Source: Magallana gigas
Taxonomy: Eukaryota
Assembly: GCF_963853765.1 (NCBI RefSeq)
Contig: NC_088861.1
Location: 16,244,001 to 16,308,000 of the forward strand
Reading direction: 5' to 3'
Length of the DNA: 64,000 nucleotides
In this document: positions 4,978 to 34,859 of the stretch, one piece after another
How positions within the stretch are numbered: position 1 is the stretch's first letter
Layout of the letters: every line of letters starts with the position of its first letter
Made by a program: the position numbers and the translations under genes
Notes under the pieces: generated by a model
What the model saw: only the letters and a program-made list of their open reading frames with translations
Database searches by the model: none
What the model was told of the DNA's origin: nothing

Positions 4978-6423
4978 TATATGTTTTAATTTTAAATGAC
5001 TACTAATAAATGTCTAAAACATGTTTTGACAACATTATTAGAGCATATTTATCCAGAACCATGAAACAACAGAGTACACAAAGTAATTCATATCCCATAC
5101 ATAAAGTTTGAATTTTGAATTCAAATATGGTTTCCTTTTTTTAAGAAAAAATGACGAAAACACAAGTTGCCAAGATAAGCAAATAAAAAATTAACTTTTT
5201 AAGTTCCACGATTTGTATTATGCAAAATATGTCGGTACAAGTGTGGAAGTATGTACAGTATTTCACAGTGAGGAAAAAACCAATTTACAGGAAAGGGTAC
5301 ATTTGTAAACTGTTGACCATTTTAATCAACAAAAATGGTGAAAAGAAGAGTTTATTGCAAATAAAAAATCTAACACAATGACAGAAGGGGCATTGTAGTG
5401 GATATTACGACAAAGTACTTATTTGTATCTGATGTCTGGTTAAGATGTATGCACTTCTCACAAAAAGCGGCATGTACTGCTTGAACCAAGGATTATTTGC
5501 AGTGACTGAGATAAGATAAAACACTAGTGCCGTTCACAACATGCATGCACTACAACAATTGATAAACAGATCTTGAATCGCAATATGCTTGCACTACAAC
5601 AATTGATAAAACGACATTGAATATCACGATTATAAATTTATGACTTTTATACTACTATAACAAATCTTTAAAAAGATAGTAATGCAACGAAGTTGATACG
5701 TTAAATCACATCTCTAATCGTAAAACGTTCACAGTTTTAAAACTTGCTTAGAAATGATGCCTCAAATAAGAAAGCAATAAAAGGATTCTATACGCTTAGT
5801 AAATTATCATTTAATGCTTAAGTTTTCTTTTTGACCTGAATTTTCTTTTGCTAGGGTTGTATATTACGCTTTCGAACACTTTTATAATGATCATGTCATA
5901 GATATAAAAATCATTAACATGTACAGCGTAACTCTTTGTTCTACAAACATTATCAGGTATATCCATAAGTTTCCTTTATTAATAACTGAAATGCCTGTCT
6001 TTAAATGACACAATTTGATTCACAATCATAAACTTAAACATTAGGTTGAGTCGCCCAAAAATTAAATGTAACCACAAACAATAGAACACGTTACAGAACT
6101 ATTGTCTGCTTAGAGTGAAACCTAAAACACCAACGTTGATATTTTTCAGCACCTACGCTTGTTATAAATGTTTTCTTCTTTTTTCATATAAAATGTTGAA
6201 TAAGGTAGTTTGTCGACAAAATGAGCTTTACTTTTCCGATTATAGACTATGTTCTCAATGCACCCAGTAACCTTATTCCAATGCAGATATGAGTGCATTT
6301 AAGGACATCATTTATAAAATATTAGATGGGTTCAGATAAGATAAATCCAGACTAAGTTATGCAGTCACGTAATATTGCGTTTTTACAAAAAAAAGAAAAC
6401 ACTGGAAGTTAATATTTCAAACA

Positions 6424-8220
6424 ATGAATTTGAAGGATTTGCAACTTACAAACAAAACAATGTGGATATTTTATGTGCTATTAGGTATCTGTATTATCAT
6501 GTTCACAATGTTGATGAACAATTCTTGCTCAGAAAAAAGAAACGGAATTCAATCGGTTATTACTTGGACGAGCCAAAACGCTACAGACGAACCGGAGAAA
6601 GGTGCAACTAAAGATCGATTTTTGCGAAGGATAATCAAGGTTTTCGATAATGGACCACGATTTGATTATTCCTTTTCACCTTTGTATCAAAACAAGTCAT
6701 CAAAAATCATCGAAAGAAATACTCGACATCAAAACTTTGACACAGACAGACATTTATCAAATGTGGATTGTAGTTCGCTGTTTCAACAAAATTTGAAAGA
6801 AATTGAGAGAGTTCGTAACCTGAATACTACAAGCAAATCACCTACGTTTTGCAATCAAACAATCGAGTGTAACAGTTTCATTTTATCAAGAGGATATATA
6901 ATGGATTCTTTAACCGACGAGGAAAGAGATTTCCCAATTGCATATAGTATTCTTGTTTACGAAAGTCCAGAACAATTTGAAATTCTTCTGAGAGCCATAT
7001 ACCGCCCACAAAATGCTTACTGTGTTCACGTTGACAGAAAAACCACCGAAAACGTGTTTAATGAATTCTCATGCATTGCACAATGCTTTCCAAATGTGAA
7101 GTTGGCATCTAAAAGAATTGAGGTGGAATGGGGGAAAATAGGAATAGTACTAGCGGAACTCTCGTGCATGAAAGATCTTTTATCATTTTCAAAATGGAAA
7201 TATTTCATTAACTTAACTGGTCGGGAGTTTCCACTGCGAACAAATTATGAATTAGTGAAAATTTTAAAAATTTATAATGGTTCCAACGATGGGGAAGGCA
7301 CAATCAAAAGGTTTGTAATCTTCTCAAACAAGAACTGTTAATTAAAAATAATTCAATGTCAAAGCATGGAGTTATCTTTTTTTCAAAGGGCTAACAAAGA
7401 CAGATGGAAAATTGGAGAAAAGCCTCCCCATAATATTCATCCAGTAAAGGGATCAGTTCACGTCACACTTAATAGAAAGTTTGTGGAATACCTCGTCAAC
7501 AATAGTGTAGCTGCTGATTTTCTAACTTGGGTAAACAGAACAAAAATTCCAGATGAGACATACTTCGCCACACTAATTCACAATCCTAATCTTGGAATTC
7601 CAGGAAGTTTTAAAGGTAAGAGAAACTAAAGAGAAAAGTAAAACAATAATTCAATTCAATACAATTCAGTAAAAAAAGCTATTGGCATTGTCTAGGTCAC
7701 TTTATATTTTTTATATATTGTGGTTAAAATGTACGCATTACAAACCTTGACAAACCTTGAATTTTTTTTTTTATCCAAAACTCAAAACTTCATTACTGAT
7801 TTTACTGATGTCAATATGAAATAGATACACAAATTTTAAAACATCAACTTCATAGTAGTATCAGGTTTTCATGAGAAGGATACTAATGTACAAGTTATTT
7901 TTACAGGAGATCTGGAAACAGATTATGGTGTACAAAAACCTTTTCTATCTCGGTTTAAAAACTGGGAAACCTCACCCAACTCTTTACCATGTAATGGTAA
8001 ATACGTTAGAACGATCTGTATTTTTGGAGTTGGAGATCTCCCTCTTCTTGCTCGTCGACCTGAGTTCTTTGCCAATAAATTTCATCTCGATTACCAAAGA
8101 GAATCTTTACTTTGTATGGATGAACTTATTTTTAACAGGACAAGGGATGAATATTACCAACGACTGCATTTTGATACAGAGTATTATAAAAACTTAAAAC
8201 ATATCCGAAACATTGTATAA
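6424..8220 (+). CDS. GCNT-like: GCNT-like beta-1,6-GlcNAc-transferase, copy 2, complete (475 aa, type II membrane)
   Basis: Exons 6424-7310, 7389-7615, 7907-8220 (1428 nt, in frame). N-terminal TM MWIFYVLLGICIIMFTMLM; same motifs and intron positions as copy 1; exon 2 is 227 nt as in the other copies. Confidence 0.93.
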
Positions 8221-15454: not shown

Positions 15455-16043
15455 TTAGAGAAGCATATTTTAAAGAGCAAACGTTTTAAAACAAATTTCT
15501 TATTTAAACAAATAATAGCGATCAAGATAAGAGATGTGTTAAATAGAATATAAGAAAATATGTTTGGTGTTTGTCAGCAATAGAATACACAATATATAAA
15601 TCTATTGTTGCACGTTTCATTTGATCACAGAATATTTTTTCTCACTATGAACACATAGTAAACCTGGCATATCGTTGTCACCTATTATGTTTATGAAAAT
15701 ACATTTTTATTGGAAAGAATAAAAGCTGACGACACTTATACAACCGTTTTATTGCAGGCTCGAGATTTTATCGGACAGATGATAATTCACTTTGTCTGGC
15801 TGATTTACTGTGTTTCACTTTTTTGTGTCTCACTCACAACATGTGTTGCATGCATTACCGCCATACAAGGAGTGAACATTCCAGAATCACTGATTATCTC
15901 GCATCGCAAAAGGAAAAGTAAAGAAACAAAATAATCGATAAGAAATAATAATACATAAAAATCCCAATCAAGGCTGAAATTCATAAGATATATATATATA
16001 TATTCATGACCCCTCAAACGTGTCTCTTCTTAAAGCAACTGCA

Positions 16044-18903
16044 ATGACTTTAAAATATACTGACGGAAAAAGATTCTTGATTTGGGTTTTATTTTATAGT
16101 TTTTGTCTAACATTTTTAACACATTATATTTTAAAATTCAATGTGTATCATGGGATAAATAATACAGCCTTTCTTGAAACCAATTATAAAAATCGGACAA
16201 ATCCTGATTCAAAGAACAGACAAACGGAACATGATTTAGAGATGCAATTTAGATATAAACTATTTAACATTGGGGCACAGTTTGCAGTATCGTTTTCACC
16301 TTTGTACAAAGACTCACAAGCAGTGAATGGATCACCTCAAGGATTCTTTAGTCCTTCAAGACATGTCTCAAACGTGGATTGTAGCCTACTGTTTGAAAAC
16401 AATTTAAAGAAAATCAAAAACGTACGACGTAAAATGAACACCAAAATACCCTCACCGCCAGTGTGTCAGCAAACAAAAGACTGTGGACATTTTATTTCGT
16501 CAAGAGGATATATAACAGATTCTTTATCAGACGAGGAAAAACATTTCCCAATTGCCTACAGCATTCTTGTTTACAAAAGTCCAGAACAATTTGAGTTTCT
16601 TTTGAGAGCCATTTACCGACCACAAAATGTTTACTGTGTTCACGTGGACAAGAAAACCCCTCCTAACGTCTTCAATGGATTTAAATGCATCACACGTCGC
16701 TTTCCAAATGTTTTCTTAGCGTCGAAAAGATATTCAGTGAACTGGGGGAAAATAGGTGTTTTATTACCAGAGATTGAATGCATGAGAAATCTTTTATCAT
16801 TTTCAACTTGGAAATATTTTATCAATCTCACTGGACCGGAATTTCCTCTTCGTACAAATTATGAGTTGGTGAAAATTTTAAAAATTTATAATGGTTCAAA
16901 TGACGCAGAGGGGACGGGACGATCAAGAGGTATGCAGTTTATGGCATTAAAAATATTAAAATGTTTTTCAACATTTGTATCATCAGCTATATACATGTAC
17001 ATATACAAACTGTTTTATTTGATGCTTCTATTATGGCAGGATTATTTTACCCTTAAGATGAGTTCAGAAAAATAATTCCAGCAGGAGTAACCTCCAGCTA
17101 ATGGCCATATTTTGGGTCAAACTGTCATGATTACTTTAATATTCAACCAATATCAACTTGCACTACTGGGTATTTTAACGCAGATAGAATTTTTTAAATC
17201 ATGTATTTACGTTTGTTAGAGCTTTCTTTACTATGTATTTGTAGTGCTGTTTGAATTTTTTTTCATCACTGTACATTTTTAACATACCTAAAATTGGTTG
17301 TCAAAGTGAAACATTCACATCTTTGACAAAGATAGCAACCAAGGGAAATAACTTTCATGGAATGAGAACTATAACAGCTCTCCTTAATTCAGATTTAGCA
17401 GAACAAATAATTTCTTTATTCTATTTGTTTTTGCATATACAAATACAATGGTAAAAAATTGCAGTTTTTTATTTATACCTATATATAATATTTCAAAATT
17501 ATTATTGTTTTGTACTGACATGGCCGTGTTAAGACTTTTGTCACTAATATCTGTACTTACATGTACGAATATAACACTTTCGCATATAGTTTCTTAATGC
17601 GTTTCGATGAAATAAATTAATGTTAATTTACAGATTTCTAATAATCCTTTTTATATTCAATTAGAGCAAACAAATATAGATGGAATATAAGAGAGCAACC
17701 TCCTCATGATATACACCCCGTAAAAGGATCGGTTCACGTGACTTTAAACAGAAAATTTGTGGAATACGTCATTAATAACGATGTAGCTGCTGATTTTCTC
17801 AGATGGGTAAAGAAAACAGAAGTCCCAGACGAAACATACTTTGCCACCTTGATTCATAATTCCCAGCTCGGCATTCCGGGGAGTTTCAAGGGTAAGTATT
17901 AAAAGATATTTATATGGTACCATATTCTTGATGTGCAATTTAATACATGTATCAGAACACATTGTGATGTAAAGCAGCTTTTATCTCCACAAACAGCATA
18001 ATCATTTCAATGACTATTTTGAGTTGATATATTTTATAACCTGAAAGTTAACGTACGACAAATTCATACCTGTTATATATTTTGAGTTTTTTAATTCTTA
18101 ATCGGGTATGGTCACAATACTGGTCAATTTTTTTTCTATTTTTCTTTGGTTACAATGCTTCAGTATTGCATTGCTAATAATCAACCAAAAATTGAGTGTC
18201 ACTCGTAGAGTTGCTAGCAAGACTTAAATCTTACCATTCTTGGTTGTGTAAATAAGGCTCGTGCCATGTTTTTAAATGCATTGGTTCAATATACCGGTAA
18301 AAATTCTTTTTCAAGCTGGTGTTTTTATCTGTTTATTTGTTTTAAATATAAATAAACAGTTCAGCATGTTTGTCACGTTCATTCTATGTCATAACCTAAA
18401 TATTTACTTTTCAAAATATAAATGTAATCCCAAAAATAACCTGAGCTTTTCCTAGATAACAAAGAATTATAAGTTCTGTATCTCACGTATAACTGGTATT
18501 CTTAAGTCTAGATGTTGTGAGTTACCTTAATTAAATACAAAATGTATACTTGAGTTTAATTCATTTGTTTGTGTTTTTTTAAGGTGACTTAGAGACAGAT
18601 TTTGGTGTACGAAAACCTTTTCTATCTCGCTTTAAGAACTGGAGGGATACGGCAAATTCACTCCAATGTCACGGTAAATTTGTTCGATCGATATGTATAT
18701 TTGGAGTCGGAGATCTTCCTCTTCTTGCTCGTCGACCTGAGTTCTTTGCCAATAAATTTCACCACAATTACCAAAGTCAAGCCTTACTTTGTATGGACGA
18801 ACTAATTTATAACAGGACACGGGAGGAATATTACCAGCGAGTGAACTTTGAGACGGAATATTATGAAAAAATAGCACACATTAAGAACATTGTAGAGAAA
18901 TAA
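16044..18903 (+). pseudogene. GCNT-like: GCNT-like copy 3, frameshifted at end of exon 1 (possible rescue by shifted acceptor)
   Basis: Exons 16044-16929, 17665-17891, 18584-18903 total 1433 nt (not a multiple of 3). GGACG is duplicated at 16912-16921 where the paralogs encode GTIKR. Remainder, including VPDETYF and exon 3, is intact. Confidence 0.8.
18102..18445. mobile_element. Partial TTAA-type (Kolobok-like) MITE in GCNT copy 3 intron 2
   Basis: TTAA then GGGTATGGTCACAAT..TGGTCAA..ACAATGCTTCAGTA..CAACCAAAAATTGAGTGTCA, similar to the ends of the 56487-56918 element; right boundary approximate. Confidence 0.5.
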
Positions 18904-23277: not shown

Positions 23278-24347
23278 ATGAGTTTCGTGTTGATAGTTTT
23301 CCCTCTAATCTGGACACCAGTTTTATCATTATGTGGAAGGTATGGTATGACTACAAAATACTACTGTTTTGTTTTATTATTTACTATTTATAAACATTTA
23401 TCTTAACTTTTTACAAATATAAAGGATACTTATTTACTTAAAAGCTATGTTGGACCCGTATGCTGTGCAGGGACATATTGGAATGATGAAACATCAAGTT
23501 GTGAAAGTAATTACAATAGTTAATAATAATCTATTTAGAACTTCACACGTACTGTATATTTCTCTATTTACAGTGTATTTTTGACTATCATGTCGATATT
23601 CTTTACGTAGAATGCCCGTTAGGGTACCAAGACATTAACTGTTCCAGAGTATGCACATATCCGACTTTTGGGAAAAGGTGTCAGGACTTATGCGACTGCA
23701 AACCTAGCGAATGTGACTTTAGATTTGGATGTAAAATATTTCACGGTATATTTATAGCATTCTGTGTCATCATTGTGGAAAGCTATTTTGGCTCAGTTAA
23801 ATAAGAACTCCAAACTGTTTCATTCATGTATCACAAAACGCTTGCATTTTTCAAATTTACTTGCATGCAAATATAAATATTACTGCAAAAATATGTATAA
23901 CATTTTATCCTTATCATTGATGATTACTTTTTAGACATTTCCCTCAATGAAACGTTTACTTCAACATCCCAGATTTTAACAACGTCAAAGACAACAGAAA
24001 CATCTTCTGGGGATGCTATTTTCATCCAAGGGTTTTCGAATTCTATATTTTATATAATAGTTGCGTTTGTCGTTCTATTTGGATTTTTTGTGGTAATATA
24101 TTTCTATAAACATTGTGTGAAGAGGACTGACGTGTCTCACAGTAAAAAGGAGGAAACCTTTTCAAGTCAAGTTGCCGAGTATGAATCTTTATTTCGGGAA
24201 AGCCACCAACAACCTCCGGTAGAAAATGCTACTGATCCGATGTACCTGGAACCGGTAACGAATGTCCATTATGAAGAAATCAAAAACGTTAATGAAACGG
24301 ATGATCAAATGATTGCTGGTGTTTTAACGGTCAATGAAAGAGTCTAG
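23278..24347 (+). CDS. Small type I membrane protein (223 aa) with EGF-like Cys-rich ectodomain (MEGF10/SCARF/Draper-like), S/T stalk, TM and Tyr-motif tail
   Basis: Exons 23278-23339, 23445-23506, 23611-23745, 23935-24347 give 672 nt in frame. Signal peptide MSFVLIVFPLIWTPVLSLC; GPVCCAGTYWNDETSSCEKCPLGYQDINCSRVCTYPTFGKRCQDLCDCKPSECDFRFGC; TM SIFYIIVAFVVLFGFFVVIYFY; AATAAA at 24415. Confidence 0.88.
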
Positions 24348-24769
24348 TTTTACAGTGAGAAAGATAACTCAAATATTCAAGATATCTATTCCTTTGTAAC
24401 AATGGTCATATACCAATAAACTCATCTTTGCACATCTCAAAATATTGAATCGACAGTTTTTTATACACTGTATCTTTCTCATTAATGTAATTAAGATATA
24501 GGAAAAAAAAACCCGAAAATATGTGCATCTTCTATTGGAACCGTGTCATTTACCAACATTTTGACACAAGCAAATCACTCTGGTATGAAGATTGATTTTT
24601 GTTTGAGCGGTCAACAAGGAAAAAGGGGTGGAACTTAATACTCCAGTATAAGACCTTAACGCTGGACTTCTTTGGATGATGGTCAAATTTAAACAACTTT
24701 TTCCAATGTCATCAAAACGTCAGAATTTTTTGCACCTCGACGTTTCACAAATTTTAAATTTGTTATCCG

Positions 24770-25282
24770 TGTAACCAGATAGCCGTATATATATGAAATA
24801 TAATTTTATGATTGTATTCTACTTTACGTTAATTAGTCATTAGCTTGTTGTGCACTCGATACGAAATAAGTGTATAGTGAACAATGTTAAAGGTCATTGA
24901 CCGAGAGGGACAACTGCGTAGTTAGAACTCGTGGTGTTAGCGGAATGACCAGGAAGAATAAAACTCTCGATGATGATTGGACTTTGGAAAGCGGTCAACG
25001 GATGCAAGACTCTTAATTGTAATTCACCTTTAACAATGGACTTCGTTATAAGTCACTTATGAACTGTGACCCGAAAGGATGTTCTAACAATTGATTATTT
25101 TATTTTACTGATTTATATACTTATGATTTGATTAATAATTAGTAGATGGATTTTGGATTGATAGCAGATTGATTATATATTGCTTTTATACCACTATACG
25201 ATTACAGTGCTTAATAAATATCATAAAACTCCAACTGACTTATGATTTCAAAAGTCTAAAGAATAACAACAGAAGGATCACA
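24770..25282 (+). repeat. 5' LTR (513 bp)
   Basis: TGTAACC...GATCACA; identical to the 3' LTR by eye except one T indel (AAGTCT vs AAGTTCT); AATAAA at 24957 and 25213. Confidence 0.97.
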
Positions 25283-25292
25283 TAGACTTTTA

Positions 25293-25311
25293 TGGTGCCA
25301 GTGACCAGGAT
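25293..25311 (+). promoter_or_regulatory. Primer-binding site, tRNA-His-like
   Basis: TGGTGCCAGTGACCAGGAT versus the expected complement of invertebrate tRNA-His 3' end, recalled as TGGTGCCGTGACCAGGAT; one extra A. Confidence 0.7.
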
Positions 25312-25412
25312 AAAACGAAGTGCTAAAGAAAAACTGAACTGTTAAGGTAAGAACTTTTTCTCAATATCTCTGTTCACTATCTCAAAGTAAATAACTCTGA
25401 TCAGCAACCTAT

Positions 25413-26741
25413 ATGGCAACTGGAAATGGTTATGATAGAAAAGAATTTAAAAATCAAATGGAACAATTGGAAAAACAATTTGCGGGGTTGGGTCAAAGTG
25501 AAGAAAAGGAAGGGCATGAAACAGGTCAAAAATTCTCAGAACAAGAACAGGTAAAACAAAACACTTTTCAAAAACAAACTGACACATATTATGATGCAAG
25601 GTTGTATGAAACTAATGAACCTCGACACCGAGTCCCAAATCAGGATGATGATAAAGATTTTTTCATTGGTCAGGTTAAAGCTATAACATCCGCGCTTACA
25701 GTGCCCCTATCTTCTGTGATAACTCCTTTCGAAGGAGATGCTAGTAAATACAAGCAGTGGATAAAGGAAATTGAAAAATATGCTTTATTGTCTGGGAAAC
25801 AGGGTCATGAAATCCCCATGCTCGCGTATATTACGAGTAAAGGTTCGGTAGGGGACTTTATCAAAAGATATTTGGACGAAACAGACGCGTCGGAAGAAAT
25901 GCCGTCGTGGAACGATTTAAAAGAATCCTTAAGAAACAGATTCGCGGAGATAACCGACTCACAACACGCGTTAGCAGTAATGCGCAGGACGCGGCAAAAT
26001 TCAAACGAAAGTGTACAGTTATTCGCGGAACGGTTGTTGCAAATCGCGGAAGACGCGTATAGTAAAGACAAATTAAAAGATCCCTTAGTCCAACAACAAC
26101 TTGTAGACATATTCTGTGACGGTCTGACCTTTGACTATCTCAGGATGAAAATCCTTAGAGAAAACCCCAAAGACTTGGAGTCAGCAATTCAGTTAGCAAT
26201 GCGCGAACAAAATTTAAGACAAAGACTAGCTATAAGGGGGTCAAGTATAACAAGTACTACGCCGAATGACAATAGACAGACTGTTTCACGGTTTGACAGT
26301 ACAACGCCTTTATTAAGTGAAAGATTGGTTAACTTGTCCTCGACAGACAATAGACAGGAAGAACCCATGGAAGTTGACCACACGAGGAACAAAGGTTGTT
26401 TTAAGTGCATGAAAATTGGTCATAGGGCCAGATTCTGTCCACTAAATAAACCCCAGGTTAGGCCCCGCCCTCAATTAAATAAACGACTTCATAATACTCA
26501 GTCTGTGCATTATGTTGAGCAAAGCCCCCGCCCACCGATTGAGTGTTGGAATTGTGGTAGAATAGGACATTTGCGTGCAGATTGCTGGAGCAAACGCAGG
26601 TTTTGCAGAACGCAGCAAAACAGAGGTAGGTCAGCTGATCGTCAAGATCGATCACGTGATTTTAAAGACCAAAATGATAGGAGATCACCCAAAATCTGGA
26701 CCCGTCGCGCCACTTTTGATAAACAAAATCAGGAAAACTAA
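25413..26741 (+). CDS. gag: Gag, 442 aa, two CCHC zinc knuckles
   Basis: Intact ORF; CFKCMKIGHRARFC and CWNCGRIGHLRADC; capsid-like middle region (FEGD...WIKEIE). Confidence 0.93.
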   Translation: MATGNGYDRKEFKNQMEQLEKQFAGLGQSEEKEGHETGQKFSEQEQVKQNTFQKQTDTYYDARLYETNEPRHRVPNQDDDKDFFIGQVKAITSALTVPLSSVITPFEGDASKYKQWIKEIEKYALLSGKQGHEIPMLAYITSKGSVGDFIKRYLDETDASEEMPSWNDLKESLRNRFAEITDSQHALAVMRRTRQNSNESVQLFAERLLQIAEDAYSKDKLKDPLVQQQLVDIFCDGLTFDYLRMKILRENPKDLESAIQLAMREQNLRQRLAIRGSSITSTTPNDNRQTVSRFDSTTPLLSERLVNLSSTDNRQEEPMEVDHTRNKGCFKCMKIGHRARFCPLNKPQVRPRPQLNKRLHNTQSVHYVEQSPRPPIECWNCGRIGHLRADCWSKRRFCRTQQNRGRSADRQDRSRDFKDQNDRRSPKIWTRRATFDKQNQEN

Positions 26742-29700
26742 GATGTTCTTCCTTCGTTGAAGCCCGAAGGAGGAACGTCCATAAAAAACCTACATTTGAA
26801 ATTAACTTTACAAACAACCCCAGTAGCTGTTTATTAAAAATTGGTAAAAATAAATTCAGAGCGTTAGTAGATACTGGCGCGGCCGTATCTTTGATTAGTA
26901 AAAAAATGTATGATAATTTGTTCCCCCGCCCCAGATTGTGTAAAAATGATATTCCTTGTCTTCAAGCTGCAAATGGTAATTCTTTAACTGCGTTAGGGTA
27001 TGTAAATATTTCATTTAAGATTGCAGGGTTAACTTTAGACCATAAACTTTTTGTGACAAAGGGACTCAACCGAAACCTGATTCTCGGTCGTGATTGGCTC
27101 AAGAAAAACAATGTCCGTTTATACTTTGATCTTGGACTCATGCGCATTGATGGCAGGGCTTATGCCGAATTAAAGGAGGATCTACACATTTCAACGATCG
27201 TAAGAACACCTAAGAAACTTATAGTGAAACCAAATACTGTGACTGTATTTTATGGAAAAGTGAACAAAAATTTCCCCCTTGAAGAAAAAGACTTAGTGGA
27301 AGTGAACAGTATAGACAATAATTGTATCATGGAGGACCCAGGACTATATTTAAAAGACTCAGTTTGTGTTATCCGAAGAGACAGAAAAATTCCCATGATC
27401 TTCGTTAATCAAACCAACAAAAGTTACAAAATCCCTAAAGGCTACATTGTAGGACGTGTTACCGCATTAAGACCAAAAGAAATCTCGGAAATCCAAACCC
27501 AACAGGACAATGAAGAAAAGATTGATGTGCCTGAAAGATTCGAACACTCCATCCAAAGACTTGTGAGGAAAAACAATGACTTATTTGCTAAAAGGGACAG
27601 CGACCTTGGAGTGACCGACACCGTCAAAATGAAGATAGAAACTGGAGACCATCACCCGATAAAGAACAGACCATATCGAGTTCCCCTCAATAAAAGACAG
27701 ATAATCGACAAGGCCATAAAGGAGATGATGAGCGCAAGGATTATTGAAAGATCACAGTCGCCTTGGTCATTTCCTCTGGTAGTAGTAAAGAAGAAGGACG
27801 GATCAGACCGGATGTGCGTAGACTTTCGAAGTTTAAACAAGATAGTGAGACCAGTATCATTCCCATTACCATTGATTGATGACATTCTTTGTTTGCTCGG
27901 TAAGGCCAGGTACTTCACTGCACTAGATTTAAAGAGTGGATATTGGCAGGTAAAATTAGAAGAATCAAGTAAAGAAAAAACAGCTTTTGCATGCCACAAG
28001 GGATTGTTTCAATTTAATAGGATGCCATTTGGATTAAGTAATGCCCCAGCAGTCTTCCAAGAACTCATGAACATCGTTCTACAAGGACAAGAGGAGTTTG
28101 CTATCGCATACCTGGACGATATACTCATATTCTCAGAAACACCGGAAGATCACCTCCATCATATCCAGGAAGTGTTTGATCGTCTAAGGACGCATGGACT
28201 AAAACTGAAGTTAAAGAAGTGTAGCTTCTTCAAAGAGCAGACTGAATATCTTGGTTTTATTATCAATGAACATGGCGTCAAACCGGATCCGAAGAAAGTG
28301 GAAGCCATTAAGAAATTACCAGCCCCCACTACAGTTAGGGAAGTCCGTGGTTTTATAGGTATGTGCAGTTATTATAGAAGATTTATACCAAACTTCTCAA
28401 AGATTGCGGAACCATTGATCGACTTAACCAGGAAGTATGCCAGATTCAAGTGGACATCATGCTGTCAAGAAGCGTTTGACTTCCTTAAAGAGAGTTTAAC
28501 AGTAGTGCCTTTATTAGCTTATCCAGATACTAATAAGCCATACATCTTGTATACCGATGCCAGCGACAATTGTATAGGAGCTTGCCTCACCCAAAAGACT
28601 GACGAAGGAGAAGATAAGCCGATATACTATCTATCCCACAAGCTGAGTAAAACCCAGGTGAAATGGTCAACCATAGAAAAGGAGGCATTTGCAATCCACT
28701 ATGCCCTCCAGAAGCTGGACCATTACCTTCACAGTGCTGAGTTTACTATACGGACAGATCACAAACCGCTCAAATATATTTTAGAATCCCCTATGCAAAA
28801 TAAAAAGATTCAATTATGGGCTTTGAGTATCGCTGGATATAACTGCAAGGTAGAGTACATAGAAGGAAGGTTCAATTGCTGTGCAGATCTTTTATCCAGG
28901 TTACCGTCCACTATCTCTGATGATGAAGCGGAAGAAAAATCTGAATGTGATGAACCGGATGTTAAAGACAATTTCTTTGAAGTAAACGTACTAAACTCAA
29001 ATGCTTTCTCACCCAAAAGATTAGCCAGGTGCGAAGTTAAACAGCAGGACGAATTGCTCAAGCCTTTCATCGACTTACCGGAAGAAATAAACATAAAGGA
29101 GAGCCAACAAAATGATGAGCAGATCAAAAAGCTGAGAAATAGGTTGAGTAAAGGAAAAGCAACGGCGACCGAAGAAAAGAAGTTTCTTGAAATAGATGGC
29201 CTAATGTACTATCTTTCGGATGGAGATTCTGAAGGTCCGAGACTGCGCCTGTATATACCACGTGAGTTAGAACTTTTGGTAGTACAACAATACCATGATG
29301 GACTTGGACACATGGGAGTGGACAAAACGTATGATGTAATCAGACAAAAATATTATATGCCAAACTTATACAAGAGGTTATACTCTTATATAGAAGGATG
29401 CGTAATATGCCAAACGAGGAGCAATAAGAGAACTCAACCTTCACTTCAAGAGACAGACATACCACCTTTTCCAATGGCTAAGGTAGGACTTGATTTGTCA
29501 GGGCCATATCCAACTTCACTGACAGGAAACAAGTATATAGTTTCTTTCATTGACATTTACTCTGGATGGCCGGAAGCCTTCCCCGTTCCTGACAAGTCAG
29601 CTGACAATATAGTGCACCTTATATTAGAAGAAATATACCCCAGATATGGCTGTCCTCTTCAAATTCTCACAGACAATGGAACAGAGAATGTAAATCAAAA

Positions 29701-30835
29701 GGTACAAGAAACCTTGAAAGAACTAAACATTAACCACATCACAACCTCTTACTACAGTCCTCAAGGCAATGGCAAGGTAGAGAGATTCCACCGCACTCTT
29801 CATGACGTAATGGCTAAGAAGATAACAGACAATGCTCAAACATGGGATATTCATCTTAACCAAACATTGGCAGCTATTCGATTTCACCCGAATGAATCTT
29901 CAAAGTTTTCCCCATACTACCTGATGTACAATAGAGACGTTGTATTACCTCTTGATACTTTACTGAAACCTCGTCGAAGATATGCAGGAGAAGATCAACA
30001 TAAAATCGCCCTTCAAGAACAGCACAAGGCGTTTATGCTAGTACATCGAAATATGAAAGAAGCCAAGAAGAAACAGAAAGCCCAGGCTGATAAGAAGAGC
30101 AAAGATGAAGATTTCCAGGTAGGAGACCCAGTCTATCTCAAGAACAACAGGAGACAAAACAAACTAGATAAAAAGTGGCTCCCCTATTACCGAATTATTG
30201 AACAGAAAGGACCAGTCAGTTTTGTGGTGAAGGATCAATTAACTGGATCTATCACCAAGTGCCATGCACGGCAATTGAGATTGGCAGATATTTCGCACTG
30301 GCCCCTCTCACAAGATATTGAAGAAGGTGGAAGAACTCTGAGAAAAACCAATTATGTGGTACCACCTGAGGAGGAATCATCTTCGGAAGATGATGGCGAG
30401 TTGCAGCCAGAGCCATTAGAAAGAGCTATTCGGTTTAAACAACAAGAGAGAGAAAATTCTTCAGACGAAGAAGATATACCCTTAGCTGAACTTCAGAGAC
30501 GCATAAGAGCTAAACAGATCATGGATTGTCGACCGAGTAAGGACGAGCATGAACAGACTGTTGAGTCGGAATCGGATGAGAACCCTGAGTCAGAACAAAG
30601 TGAATATCATGATCAAAATTATGAGATACCTTTAAATACCCCAGCTTTACCCTTAGACGAGGATATGGAAATTGGTGAAATAAATTCTAAAGTAGGTCTA
30701 GGCTTCACCCGTAAACCACTTCCCAAACCGCGTAAACCAGTCCCCAAACCTCGTAAGAATATAGCTGTTAGTAAACAACAGCACGTAGAAAATTGTTTTG
30801 CTATCATGGCTGAAGCGTTTAAAGCAATTGTATAA
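26723..30835 (+). CDS. pol: Pol (protease-RT-RNase H-integrase), in the -1 frame relative to gag
   Basis: Frame open from 26723 after TAA at 26720-26722. LVDTGAAVS protease (~26864-26890), YLDD RT (28109-28120), LYTDAS RNase H, GHMG..C..C, TDNGTE and NGKVERFHRTL integrase, GPVSF motif; no internal stop. Confidence 0.95.
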   Translation, partial: TKSGKLRCSSFVEARRRNVHKKPTFEINFTNNPSSCLLKIGKNKFRALVDTGAAVSLISKKMYDNLFPRPRLCKNDIPCLQAANGNSLTALGYVNISFKIAGLTLDHKLFVTKGLNRNLILGRDWLKKNNVRLYFDLGLMRIDGRAYAELKEDLHISTIVRTPKKLIVKPNTVTVFYGKVNKNFPLEEKDLVEVNSIDNNCIMEDPGLYLKDSVCVIRRDRKIPMIFVNQTNKSYKIPKGYIVGRVTALRPKEISEIQTQQDNEEKIDVPERFEHSIQRLVRKNNDLFAKRDSDLGVTDTVKMKIETGDHHPIKNRPYRVPLNKRQIIDKAIKEMMSARIIERSQSPWSFPLVVVKKKDGSDRMCVDFRSLNKIVRPVSFPLPLIDDILCLLGKARYFTALDLKSGYWQVKLEESSKEKTAFACHKGLFQFNRMPFGLSNAPAVFQELMNIVLQGQEEFAIAYLDDILIFSETPEDHLHHIQEVFDRLRTHGLKLKLKKCSFFKEQTEYLGFIINEHGVKPDPKKVEAIKKLPAPTTVREVRGFIGMCSYYRRFIPNFSKIAEPLIDLTRKYARFKWTSCCQEAFDFLKESLTVVPLLAYPDTNKPYILYTDASDNCIGACLTQKTDEGEDKPIYYLSHKLSKTQVKWSTIEKEAFAIHYALQKLDHYLHSAEFTIRTDHKPLKYILESPMQNKKIQLWALSIAGYNCKVEYIEGRFNCCADLLSRLPSTISDDEAEEKSECDEPDVKDNFFEVNVLNSNAFSPKRLARCEVKQQDELLKPFIDLPEEINIKESQQNDEQIKKLRNRLSKGKATATEEKKFLEIDGLMYYLSDGDSEGPRLRLYIPRELELLVVQQYHDGLGHMGVDKTYDVIRQKYYMPNLYKRLYSYIEGCVICQTRSNKRTQPSLQETDIPPFPMAKVGLDLSGPYPTSLTGNKYIVSFIDIYSGWPEAFPVPDKSADNIVHLILEEIYPRYGCPLQILTDNGTENVNQKVQETLKELNINHITTSYYSPQGNGKVERFHRTLHDVMAKKITDNAQTWDIHLNQTLAAIRFHPNESSKFSPYYLMYNRDVVLPLDTLLKPRRRYAGEDQHKIALQEQHKAFMLVHRNMKEAKKKQKAQADKKSKDEDFQVGDPVYLKNNRRQNKLDKKWLPYYRIIEQKGPVSFVVKDQLTGSITKCHARQLRLADISHWPLSQDIEEGGRTLRKTNYVVPPEEESSSEDDGELQPEPLERAIRFKQQERENSSDEEDIPLAELQRRIRAKQIMDCRPSKDEHEQTVESESDENPESEQSEYHDQNYEIPLNTPALPLDEDMEIGEINSKVGLGFTRKPLPKPRKPVPKPRKNIAVSKQQHVENCFAIMAEAFKAIV
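26732..26779 (+). promoter_or_regulatory. -1 programmed ribosomal frameshift signal
   Basis: G_GAA_AAC heptamer (26732-26738) just before the gag TAA, followed by a 15-bp stem 26742-26756/26765-26779 (two G-U pairs) with an 8-nt loop. Confidence 0.8.
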
Positions 30836-30857
30836 CGTGTTGTAAATGTAAATAATA

Positions 30858-31797
30858 ATGAGTAAACTTGCTTTGTATATATTGCTCGCTTTTGGAATAG
30901 GTACGATAGTGTGTCACCCCTTTGACATTTTGACTGATAATGAAATACCGCGGACGTAATACGTTTGAAATATCGGAACCCGCGATTATGTAAAGAAACC
31001 GTAAAACCGTGTCGTTGTAAGAAATTTAAAATTACTGGTAAAATAATAAATGTTAGGATAAACATCTTGAGTTTGGACGAGGATGTTCTGGTCTTCTTGG
31101 TTCATTATTACTTCCTCCTTACTATAATCGAGAAAGTCAATTTAATATGTCGGACTCCTTTCAAAATTTTATTGATGGCATAAACACATACACACTTTGG
31201 GACCCCCTTAACATCAAATTTCCGGGGATGGGACACATTAAGATCCCCGATAAATTAAAGGATATTAAAGTTTTCCCTATGGACACACTAATGGCGGAAT
31301 TGCCAGTAAGCAATGAACTACAACCTATGGAATCATTACCTTGGGTGGGAAGTCTTTGGTTTTATGTATTTTTGATTTTGGCAATAATAATTGTATTCGG
31401 AATTTGTATCCTGAAACGTAAAACTATCAAAAAGTTAGGATATAAGTGCCGTGGTTGCTGGTCGGGTGGTCGAAAAAGGGGTGGTGACAGGGATGAGGAA
31501 AGTTCTGGCAGAAATGTTTTGTCTGGTGTTAATCCTGATCAACGAAATTCCCAAGAGACTATTGAAATGAACCCCATAGTAAAGGACACTACAACCCCAA
31601 AGAGACCTCGCCGTTATGGAAAACCACGACGATCAATTACAGACGCTCACGCTATTGGACCACTCACTGAAGAATTAGCATACCAGTTGACCGGAGAGAA
31701 TAGGAACTCCGATTATCCGAGGCCTGAACGCTATGGACCGGACCCGGACTTGGCACGCGAATACCTTGCAGAAAGGGCATTGATGTCTAAGAAATAG
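30858..31797 (+). pseudogene. env: env-like ORF3, internally deleted or frame-disrupted: signal-peptide piece (30858-30959) plus stem-TM-tail piece (frame open 31057-31797)
   Basis: MSKLALYILLAFGIGTIVC signal-like peptide right after the pol stop; downstream GCSGLLGSLLLPPYYNRES...IKVFPMD...WFYVFLILAIIIVFGICIL TM and ~130-aa tail; canonical env position between pol and the 3' LTR. Confidence 0.7.
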
Positions 31798-32540
31798 AGG
31801 AACGCAGTCGATGTTCCGCGAGGAGCAAACTCGCCATCCGCGCAGGAAGTGCCGTTGGTGTGCTTATGAAAATTGTGTATTCAATATGTTCAAATTTGTG
31901 AAAAATGTAAAATGTTTTTGAAATAATTATGTAATGTTATATTTGAAATCAAATGTGGTGAGCTGAGAACTGCGAATGGAATTCTTCGAATCCGAATTAC
32001 ACAACGTTTTCTTGATTATCGTTCCGATTATTCGAAAAGGATGCAATTGTGTGAAACCGATAACTTTAGTGTAACTTTTATGTACGCTGGACTGTGTAAC
32101 CTTTATATATGCTTATGTATTTTATTATAATTCTAGCGGCGCTTATGCTTGAATTAACATTTTATAATGGACTTTATATGTTACCTGTGTGGAACGTTGG
32201 ACATTGGACAATTCTGATTGCATTTAATTGCGATTATATTTGATTTTGATTATTTTGTATTGATTAATATTGTTGTCAAAAGTATATATGATTATTACTG
32301 ACTTTTGCATGAATTGCTAAACAATTATATATTGTCATGAGTGAAGTATACATGTTTGTTGACAGACTATTATTGTGTCTTAAGCCGGTATAGGAAATTG
32401 GTCACTTCATTCAACCTCTTAACATAGATGTTCTGACCGGTGTGTCACCAGGAAGTTCATCTGACATAGAAGAGTTTGAAGGATAATTTCTCACACCGGG
32501 CACCTGGCGAAAGAAATCTCCCTCGGGGATATTTCTTTTG

Positions 32541-32553
32541 TTAGGGGGACGTA
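32541..32553 (+). promoter_or_regulatory. Polypurine tract
   Basis: TTAGGGGGACGTA directly 5' of the 3' LTR. Confidence 0.75.
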
Positions 32554-33067
32554 TGTAACCAGATAGCCGTATATATATGAAATATAATTTTATGATTGTA
32601 TTCTACTTTACGTTAATTAGTCATTAGCTTGTTGTGCACTCGATACGAAATAAGTGTATAGTGAACAATGTTAAAGGTCATTGACCGAGAGGGACAACTG
32701 CGTAGTTAGAACTCGTGGTGTTAGCGGAATGACCAGGAAGAATAAAACTCTCGATGATGATTGGACTTTGGAAAGCGGTCAACGGATGCAAGACTCTTAA
32801 TTGTAATTCACCTTTAACAATGGACTTCGTTATAAGTCACTTATGAACTGTGACCCGAAAGGATGTTCTAACAATTGATTATTTTATTTTACTGATTTAT
32901 ATACTTATGATTTGATTAATAATTAGTAGATGGATTTTGGATTGATAGCAGATTGATTATATATTGCTTTTATACCACTATACGATTACAGTGCTTAATA
33001 AATATCATAAAACTCCAACTGACTTATGATTTCAAAAGTTCTAAAGAATAACAACAGAAGGATCACA
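32554..33067 (+). repeat. 3' LTR (514 bp)
   Basis: Copy of 24770-25282 plus one T; followed by the TCCG TSD. Confidence 0.97.
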
Positions 33068-34859
33068 TCCGCATTTGAAATGCATCTAAAGTATTTCTGC
33101 ATGTACTTTTAATGCGTGGCTGTACAGCACAAATATTCATCATATTGTTTCACGACAAGGAACCTTAAATTCAATTCCTTCTAGAATCACATTTGGTGCC
33201 ATAATTAAATCCAAAACAAGTACTTTGTAAAAATATCTAGCGGCGTATTTCACTTCAATATACGTGTAGTACAATTAACATTTCAACAGCATGCTGTATA
33301 AACCACCATAATAATATTAGTATGACATTGTAGGTCACGTCTTCACGGAAACATCATTCCTCCTTTAAACTCAAAACATGCATCTCTAAATGGTGCACTC
33401 GATATAGCTTAAGTGGGTGAACGCCAATGTCAACGTTGTAAACATTCTGTATTGTATATCAAATACATTTAACTGATGGAGTATAGAGAAATAAACTATA
33501 AATAAAGCGGACAATAATGCCGTTAAAGCAGCGGATCTTATGTTCAGCGATGATCCGTGGTTTTTAAAAACAAATACGGAATGCTTGCTGAAGTTTATGA
33601 AATTTTTGTTTTCATGTTATTATGAAATCTCCCCTCGCGCCGAAGCAGTGGGTCATTGATAAACTATTCCTAACTAATTCTGAATTTGTAGAAATACACA
33701 GGAAAACATATTAATATTTCTAGCTTAAGGAATAAAAAAAGGATACTAAAAATAACTTATTATAACATTTATCGCCTTCATTAAAAGAAAACTGGGAAGT
33801 GAGTTTTTCTTCGTTACAGTTTTAAAAAATCAATACATTTACGTTAGGTTATTGGTTGATAATTTAAAAATTGACAATAAATTGTTTAACACTGAAGAAC
33901 ACGCCGACGAAACCCCCGGGGCCCAAGGAGATTCAAACTCCGACCGCAGTGTGGGACTACAACCAGTGCGGTGATGGAGGACGACCTGCGGCTAAGTGGT
34001 TCCAAAACGGATCCACCCCCACCAAATAGGAGAATGCAGGTGAGCAGATGAAGATATCAAATTCCTCTCGTAAAACACATGCGAACTAAATTAGAGACTA
34101 CAATACCAGGAATATACTGACTTTCTCTCAGGTTTTGATATCATGCGTCTTGTTGAATTCGAAACAATGACCGATAGGACGTCATACACGTCTTTGGTTA
34201 ATTTTGCCTTTCTAAAGAACAGAACAAACTATCCACAATTCGTTCAGGTGGCATCGGACTTAAGACAGTCGAGAGTTGGGCTATGGGCGTAACTTATTTG
34301 TTTACGCTCTTTTGATAAATATTACGTATTTTCATCACCCACTCTTAACCTCTTTTTCAAGCTTCTCGGATACAACCTATTAAGGATCGTCCAAAGAAGT
34401 AAATATTATCTCCAAAGTAAAGGGAAAACACTTATACATGTACATACAAACCATCAAAGACAAATTGAAAACAGTTACTTTAAGTGTGATTGTGTTAATT
34501 GACTGAATTGTGTAAAGTTAGTTTGAGTTCCGCCGTGGTGATTCCCGGACGTCGCTTAACTCTTGACAGTTTTGAGTAACAAAACTAGTGTGAACAGTAC
34601 GAGTATATATTGTAAGAAAGCGAGAATATTTTCATTGCTTCTGTTTTTAATTTGGACATTCAAGGAAATAAAAGGTTTCAACATTATTTTTGTGTTCCTT
34701 TAATATTACGCTAAAGTCAGGTTGTGAGAATTGGTTGAGAATTTTTAAGAATTGGCCCGGAGTATTGCATTTCCTATGTAATACCTAGATCCCAGTACCT
34801 CGTGTCTATCATTGTGTAAGCAGTAAATTCCTCCAATGTCGCGCACATTATCCGGCATA

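Follow-up and report, generated by a model that had tools for sequence, protein, structure and literature searches.

Ty3/gypsy elements that carry an envelope (env) gene are found across metazoans. Chary and Hayashi (eLife 2026; PMC13524379) catalogued intact elements of this kind, including 36 bivalve errantiviruses, and the accessible portion of their supplement, which covers 30 of the 36 bivalve rows, gives an F-type envelope (ENV_F) in all 30; the oysters there are Crassostrea ariakensis 1-4 and Magallana hongkongensis 1. Elements with a truncated env were removed from that catalogue and intact ones kept, and its accessible text describes env as not often lost. F-type errantiviruses of bivalves are already published, so the envelope of an oyster element is expected rather than new, and the novelty implied in the initial annotation of the present locus is superseded by these 36 elements.

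Lentiviruses, which are complex retroviruses, have an accessory region (vif/vpr/tat) between pol and env. Extra ORFs between pol and env have also been reported in LTR elements (PMC6431247, accessible part). Loss of env with a higher copy number has been described in vertebrate endogenous retroviruses (ERVs), as in the mouse 'genomic superspreaders' IAP versus IAPE (PMC4643047, accessible part).

In the present study, we analyzed a stretch of 64,000 nucleotides of Magallana gigas DNA (the window), which contains a recently inserted Ty3/gypsy element with a remnant of env, and compared it with related copies in the same genome. The family resembles the bivalve elements of PMC13524379, as far as their accessible description goes, in its gag-pol-env order, in an F-type Env with a basic cleavage site and a fusion peptide, in its oyster host, in its size of 9-12 kb, and in a His-type primer site some bases past the LTR, as in several rows. 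Unlike in those elements, deleted copies exceed undeleted ones by about 7:1 among the loci compared, and as many as four genes separate pol from env in the parent. Like IAP relative to IAPE in the accessible account of PMC4643047, the deleted form has lost env, has gag and pol open, and has a copy number above that of its env-bearing kin; unlike IAP/IAPE, it belongs to mollusc Metaviridae, has kept a stump consisting of the transmembrane (TM) helix and tail, and seems to exchange sequence with the undeleted form. Like complex retroviruses, the parent has several small genes in the pol-env interval, which in the parent each follow an acceptor-like signal. It differs from them in that three of its four accessory genes are paralogs of one orphan family.

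The locus bears on how env-bearing elements are converted to intracellular retrotransposons, since young forms of both kinds coexist and the deleted one is dominant; this dominance runs against the view of rare env loss in the accessible text of PMC13524379. The locus also bears on the question of whether errantiviruses of invertebrates possess accessory genes and splicing programs, as complex retroviruses do: the parent contains four small ORFs under selection, three of which belong to a single orphan family, and its host is an aquaculture animal for which RNA data are ample. The main text of PMC13524379, in its accessible form, contains neither 'accessory' nor 'splic'. Our search of the open literature, with subscription papers and Repbase outside it, gave no account of errantiviruses from molluscs with accessory ORFs or of their env-deleted forms; the two to four small pol-env genes of the parents and the same env breakpoint in two subfamilies were not found in print.

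The element in the window

The related copies fall into two subfamilies, A and B, and the window copy belongs to subfamily A. Its features are as follows (window coordinates).

24770-33067, + strand: complete Ty3/gypsy LTR element
24766..24769, unstranded: left target-site duplication TCCG, the same 4 bases at both element ends
24770..25282, + strand: 5' LTR, 513 nt, TG...CA; a single 1-nt indel relative to the 3' LTR, otherwise identical
25292..25304, + strand: primer-binding-site-like motif, His-tRNA-like
25413..26741, + strand: gag, open, 442 aa; zf-CCHC (Pfam, E 6e-8)
26723..30835, + strand: pol, open, 1370 codons; protease-RT-RNase H-integrase (Pfam)
30836..30885, + strand: post-pol non-coding spacer that aligns collinearly with L057, the undeleted copy of subfamily A; contains the ATG of a 33-aa peptide
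30858..30959, + strand: 33-aa hydrophobic mini-frame, 33 codons long in 1 of 19 aligned copies
30886..31056, + strand: junction filler, without a counterpart in L057, joined to env near residue 473
31057..31797, + strand: env stump with stem, TM helix and a cytoplasmic tail of 126 aa; matches the 746-aa Env at residues 476-734 (tblastn)
about 31357-31416, + strand: TM helix of the env stump (19-residue Kyte-Doolittle mean 3.0)
31798..32553, + strand: 3' untranslated region, 97% identical to the undeleted A copy, with the polypurine tract AGGGGGA directly before the LTR
32554..33067, + strand: 3' LTR, 514 nt
33068..33071, unstranded: right target-site duplication TCCG

The LTR pair with TG...CA ends, the target-site duplication, the primer site, the polypurine tract and the order of the pol domains are all those of a Ty3/gypsy element. 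The reverse complement of 25292..25304 is the His_GUG 12-mer given in the accessible supplement of PMC13524379 plus one extra base. In Gag, the Retrotrans_gag and Ty3_capsid scores were under the Pfam cut-off. The start of pol overlaps the end of gag in the -1 frame, and its stop codon is the TAA at 30833-30835; Pfam matches in Pol were RVT_1 (E 8e-41), RT_RNaseH (5e-35), Integrase_H2C2 (8e-17) and rve (3e-11), and its best named animal match was from Magallana gigas itself (94% amino acid identity). As the LTRs are one indel apart and both gag and pol are open, the element is a young, recent insertion.

The region 31057-31797 is a 246-codon stop-to-stop frame that contains GCSG..LLPPYY..ES and KIPDKLKDIKVFPMD; the hydrophobic helix occupies residues 101-119 and is followed by the tail. 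The initial annotation had located this frame, its stem, its TM helix and its long tail correctly. In-frame ATGs are present at 31147, 31228 and 31279 (MSDSF, MGHIKI and MDTLM, respectively).

At 1-1442, 6373-8217 and 15987-18903, the window contains three genes in tandem that belong to the Core-2/I-branching glycosyltransferase family; the third matched PF02485 (E 9e-27), and the first two were assigned by visible similarity. At 23520-24347, exons of an EGF-repeat single-pass membrane protein, which we take to be MEGF10/scavenger-receptor-like, lie on the same strand as the element and end about 420 nt before the 5' LTR; the protein had no Pfam match.

Envelope and accessory genes of the parent family

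A protein search of the genome with the stump frame gave 153 matches. Three of these, at 57-58% identity, sit in open frames of 771 codons on contigs C5, C7 and C8, and the stump frame as a whole shares 58% amino acid identity with these frames. From their ATG, they encode 746 aa with a signal peptide, R-N-T-R, coiled coils, a cysteine-rich head, a stem, a TM helix and a long tail. The R-N-T-R lies at residues 133-136, is followed by the hydrophobic AVIPIVGKVLSFLFG, and is a predicted cleavage site of the minimal R-x-x-R type. The initial annotation had suggested that an infectious-capable parental family may exist in this genome and proposed looking for siblings with a continuous third ORF of 500-700 aa; a parent family with continuous env ORFs, of 771 codons, was indeed found. 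The long tail, which it regarded as a peculiarity, turned out to be a trait of the family.

The 746-aa Env matched the Pfam family Baculo_F (PF12259) with E 7e-21 and 74.9 bits (cut-off 24.1), and the N-terminal half of the Env of the undeleted A copy matched it with E 7e-14. In contrast to the parent protein, the 246-aa frame and the 33-aa peptide searched by themselves gave no Pfam match below E 0.25. A sequence search of the 746-aa Env against the PDB gave one chance match (E 0.96), and only a fold search was informative. With an AlphaFold2 model built from 32 sequences (pLDDT 73.7, pTM 0.52), Foldseek against the PDB found the F proteins of RSV (the best, E 5e-11), NDV and hPIV3, and against BFVD, baculovirus F (E 2e-24, TM 0.51); the rmsd in these fold matches is high, 18-34 Å. 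The full env ORF, the cleavage-site motif with a fusion peptide and the predicted class I F fold fit an F-type errantivirus as the parent family. The model also matched an uncharacterized 801-aa protein of abalone herpesvirus (BFVD rank 5, E 3e-20, 14% identity), which is F-like. Matches to the Env ectodomain at 18-34% identity were also present in open frames of 700-850 codons at about 30 other loci, which represent several further env-bearing families.

The 246-codon frame thus corresponds, by homology, to the last third of an F-type Env (stem, membrane anchor and tail), in line with the initial annotation, which took it for the C-terminal end of an F-like envelope that has lost most of its ectodomain. 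Of the full env of an F-type errantivirus, residues 476-734 alone are left, and we classify the window copy as a deleted derivative of such an element. The signal peptide, the cleavage site and the fusion peptide are lost together with the head, and without these parts the stump cannot act as a class I fusogen. That the frame might be a captured fragment of a host membrane protein, or noise, could have been argued from the lack of a Pfam match for the stump alone, but in several siblings the stump is contiguous with a Baculo_F ectodomain; this idea is refuted, and we give it practically no weight.

The initial annotation also pointed to horizontal transfer of retroelements among bivalves. Named Env matches outside oysters (Mytilus, Haliotis and Lottia) were 30-36% identical, and the best named non-oyster mollusc RT match among the at least 120 matches listed was 69% (Haliotis). 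The named matches, which are a minority since most matches are nameless, show no sign of horizontal transfer, which is neither shown nor excluded by them; there is no support so far for envelope-driven transfer between bivalves.

In undeleted subfamily-B copies, four small ORFs follow pol in the order ORF-a (72 aa), ORF-b (152 aa), ORF-c (144 aa) and ORF-d (211 aa), and then env. The undeleted A copy has ORF-c and ORF-d and lacks ORF-a and ORF-b, and a third type, L059, has ORF-a to ORF-d, with c and d broken. The small ORFs between pol and env are located as follows.

L054, 5292-7286
L051, 5354-7347
L057, 1587-2717
L059, 5773-7651

ORF-b, ORF-c and ORF-d are paralogs (19-38% identical) with the common core LP...I.KY.R.A...E..R. 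Between the subfamilies, their pN was 0.10-0.27 against a pS of 0.41-0.86, with env similar, which indicates that these ORFs are kept as proteins by purifying selection. All five starts in subfamily B (ORF-a to ORF-d and env) lie within 3 nt after a pyrimidine tract plus YAG, compared with 10 of the 214 other ATGs of the stretch, the pattern having been defined after the sites had been seen. These acceptor-like motifs make it likely that env and the accessory genes of the parent are translated from alternatively spliced RNAs.

One search gave 33 homologs of the accessory family, short and nearly all without a name, with one labeled Magallana gigas. HMMER over 1.84 billion representatives gave 37 proteins of the family, all of 42-224 aa, and the ten that were looked up were nameless or 'hypothetical'; one ORF-c sequence is present on 790 contigs. 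The family matched no Pfam family and nothing in the ESM Atlas (best 0.85, a lead), and with a weak model (pTM 0.33), Foldseek against the PDB gave no E under 0.001 and VIA-align a best Z of 4.2. LP-x4-I is an F-box-like motif, and an F-box was therefore considered for ORF-b, ORF-c and ORF-d, but no F-box family was found at E 0.1 among 32 members and no fold match with the model of pTM 0.33. No homology of these ORFs to retroviral accessory proteins was found.

An unrelated 3-kb insertion (L060, 2530-5716) splits ORF-b of one undeleted B copy. In a distant F-env family (L056, L055 and L064; 34% identity in the stump), L056 (contig C1, 3.29 Mb) has an unrelated 203-aa ORF at 5037-5648, between pol and a 680-aa env. 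L064, a copy of the same family, has also lost most of env but not the stem, TM helix and tail; this deletion, in a separate family, is parallel to that of the window copy.

The deletion and its spread

L057 (contig C10) is the sole undeleted A copy and was 96-99% identical to the window copy in RT, integrase (IN), env stump, UTR and LTR (96-98% in stump DNA); its env is split over two frames, with the break near residue 365. It is collinear with the window up to 30885 (97.8% identity between window 30700-30885 and L057 1297-1482) and again from 31058, with 2654 nt of L057 replaced by 172 nt.

As the initial annotation described, an ATG 23 nt past the pol stop, at 30858, opens MSKLALYILLAFGIGTIVCHPFDILTDNEIPRT, which ends at the stop codon 30957-30959. 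It took this peptide for the N-terminus of Env, and on that reading, the peptide and the 246-aa frame would be the two ends of one env that has lost its middle, and splicing or frameshifting might rejoin them. The peptide does sit after pol, and its hydrophobic core (12-residue mean 2.6) is similar to that of real signal peptides. However, its DNA maps to the spacer and ORF-b and not to env: its counterpart in the closest undeleted copy, at 98% DNA identity, holds six codons and then a stop within the post-pol spacer, and the true Env start and signal peptide lie about 1.25 kb downstream, in a part deleted from the window copy. The length of 33 codons is found in the window copy only, the other 18 of the 19 aligned subfamily-A copies having 6-18 codons or no ATG, and the BLOSUM score against the true Env N-terminus was 22. 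The mini-frame is likely a chance frame made of spacer plus accessory-gene debris rather than an Env signal peptide; the two-ended env is refuted as homology, and we consider it very improbable.

Besides the window copy, 19 A-deleted and 22 B-deleted loci were compared, taken from the best genome-search matches, so that these numbers are lower bounds and the sample is non-random. A genome search with the ectodomain found one undeleted copy of type A and five of type B. None of the 41 deleted copies has env before residue 463. By tblastn, env starts at residues 470-481 in all 19 A-deleted copies and at residues 463-473 in 17 of the 22 B-deleted copies; the other five B-deleted copies show env only past a second gap, which extends to about residue 538 in most B copies. 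Full LTR pairs at 98-100% identity were present in nine of the 19 A-deleted copies, and gag and pol are both open in 4/19 A-deleted and 7/22 B-deleted copies. The deleted forms are active and dominant over the undeleted ones.

With tblastn, an ORF-b relic was found in 21/22 B-deleted copies and 1/19 A-deleted copies, and none in the window copy itself. L082, a collinear sibling that has kept 58 more bases, scored 93.5 against ORF-b DNA (shuffle maximum 42), whereas sibling L079 and the window filler scored no better than controls; the accessory profile gave no score on the window filler, and in a loose DNA alignment with the parents, the filler beat shuffles only across the common spacer. Judging from the collinear siblings, the filler is largely the eroded middle of ORF-b.

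The two subfamilies differ by 15% in RT DNA and 32% in the TM-tail region, with synonymous sites near saturation (dS 1.0-1.4), and form clades with a support of 100 in trees of both IN (43 rows) and the TM-tail region (47 rows). In both trees, the undeleted copies are nested among the deleted copies of their own subfamily; support within the subfamilies is low (5/40 and 8/44 branches starred), and this nesting is unproven branch by branch. Within a subfamily, the deleted and undeleted forms are close in sequence: 96-99% for the window copy and the undeleted A copy, and 95-99% in gag, RT, IN and TM-tail for L061 and the undeleted B form. L071 and L072 (contig C4, 39.49 and 39.69 Mb) have an identical 3' region 206 kb apart, a segmental or assembly duplicate, and L072, being nearly a duplicate of L071, was left out of the trees and of the counting of variants. 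L076 (contig C9, 44.23 Mb; 3.6 kb) has the gag start fused in frame to the pol end, with nearly all of pol missing; its LTRs are 97.8% alike, and it is a non-autonomous derivative.

The likeness of 95-99% and the grouping in both trees could mean that the A and B deletions are independent and recent, each having arisen at a breakpoint hot spot in the full-length parent of its subfamily, without any need for recombination. Both junction ends, however, coincide in A and B, and the sole undeleted A copy lacks ORF-a and ORF-b, yet the A-deleted copies carry an ORF-b relic, which an unsampled A parent with ORF-b might explain. The filler is also heavily eroded, only 72-76% alike between A and B, and is therefore far older than the flanks. 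Independent deletions appear unlikely to us. The same breakpoint in A and B, together with the 95-99% likeness of each deleted form to its own undeleted form, suggests recurrent recombination, and one deletion plus repeated template switching would be the simplest reading of an old junction with young flanks.

By this recombination model, one old deletion would have fused the middle of ORF-b to env and removed ORF-c, ORF-d and the signal peptide, cleavage site, fusion peptide and head; it would be older than the A/B split or have moved across it. Deleted and undeleted RNAs packaged together would then have undergone repeated template switching within each subfamily as they were reverse-transcribed, and this would have brought the old junction into young flanks. 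Such exchange would hold the stump close to a functional env and account for its open frame and weak purifying signal. The parent would be an enveloped errantivirus whose Env is cut at R-N-T-R and acts in membrane fusion as a class I trimer; env and every accessory gene would be translated from separately spliced RNAs, and the deleted forms would come to outnumber the undeleted ones, as with env-less vertebrate ERVs. Overall, we consider it highly probable that the window holds a recent gypsy insertion in which most of an F-type env and the accessory genes have been lost, with a stem-anchor-tail that is likely a non-functional relic, and with intracellular copying by its own gag and pol.

Selection on the env stump

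Variants were called against a natural reference copy and counted as shared if present in at least two copies and otherwise as private (12-18 of 18 A copies per region, 21 B copies). In subfamily A, shared-variant pN/pS was 0.02 in RT, 0.04 in IN, 0.30 in gag and 0.43 in the whole stump; within the stump, it was 0.18 in the stem, 0.37 from the ATG to the TM helix and 0.89 in the tail, and private stump variants gave 0.77. For stem plus TM, it was 0.27 (p 0.001, transition bias ignored), and for the whole A stump, p was 0.007-0.09 depending on the bias assumed (0.02-0.09 with transition bias). In subfamily B, the stump gave 0.61 for shared versus 0.66 for private variants, with 0.69 in the tail.

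Of the 18 A-deleted copies, no two have a stop or frameshift of the stump in common. With A and B pooled, the ratio of shared to private frameshifts was 0/18 in the stump against 15/33 in the 3' UTR (Fisher p 0.007), a contrast that is not significant in either subfamily alone and involves a UTR more prone to indels. Stops in or just after the TM helix are present in 4/7 B-deleted copies with open gag and pol, one of them common to three copies. In both subfamilies, the frame retains an ATG about 26 codons ahead of the TM helix; the most constrained part of the A stump, the stem, lies upstream of this ATG and is missing from most B copies. If the window ATG at 31279 is used, the product has an outside part of 26 aa, the TM helix and a basic patch, KRKTIKK.

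These observations bear on the possibility that the stump is kept as a 172-aa membrane protein starting at 31279 and acting as a fusogen like MDG1-group sORF2 or reovirus FAST, as a capsid tether or in Env interference. Its layout is like that of sORF2/FAST in the accessible part of PMC11952523, with a possible short ectodomain of about 30 aa, one TM helix, a polybasic patch and no full Env. The ATG, TM helix and tail have also outlasted both the common deletion and the second, B-specific gap, without shared frameshifts. Unlike sORF2/FAST as described there, the stump derives from the C-terminus of Env itself, has 172 aa, shows little selection and is dispensable in young copies. The myristoylation motif MGxxxS/T, which most but not all sORF2/FAST members in that account carry, is absent at the stump starts, and none of the stump ATGs, including 31279, has the acceptor-like context found at 5/5 parent ORFs. 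The tail pN/pS of both subfamilies (0.89 and 0.69), the TM stops in young B copies with open gag-pol and the constrained A stem upstream of the ATG also argue against a function of its own, the last fitting inheritance from a full Env. A functional stump is thus improbable in our judgment; under weak selection, it is most likely a relic, and its residual purifying signal would stem from refreshing by a functional env.

A wider picture can be offered only tentatively, and we would not favor it at present: an oyster 'complex' errantivirus, enveloped, with a duplicated array of orphan accessory genes and alternative splicing, whose env-deleted satellites are co-packaged and recombine across the subfamily split. 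If it is true, enveloped particles could carry the satellites along, and at its boldest, the picture would have the TM-tail stump act as a small membrane protein.

Reads of three RNA runs (about 1/100 of each) and the contigs of one run were placed on the window element; depth was mostly below 10, with no joint into the stump, and these thin, multi-copy matches weigh neither way on expression. Many reads match only window 26714-27155 and 32416-32568 and then diverge; other transcribed repeats contain these pieces.
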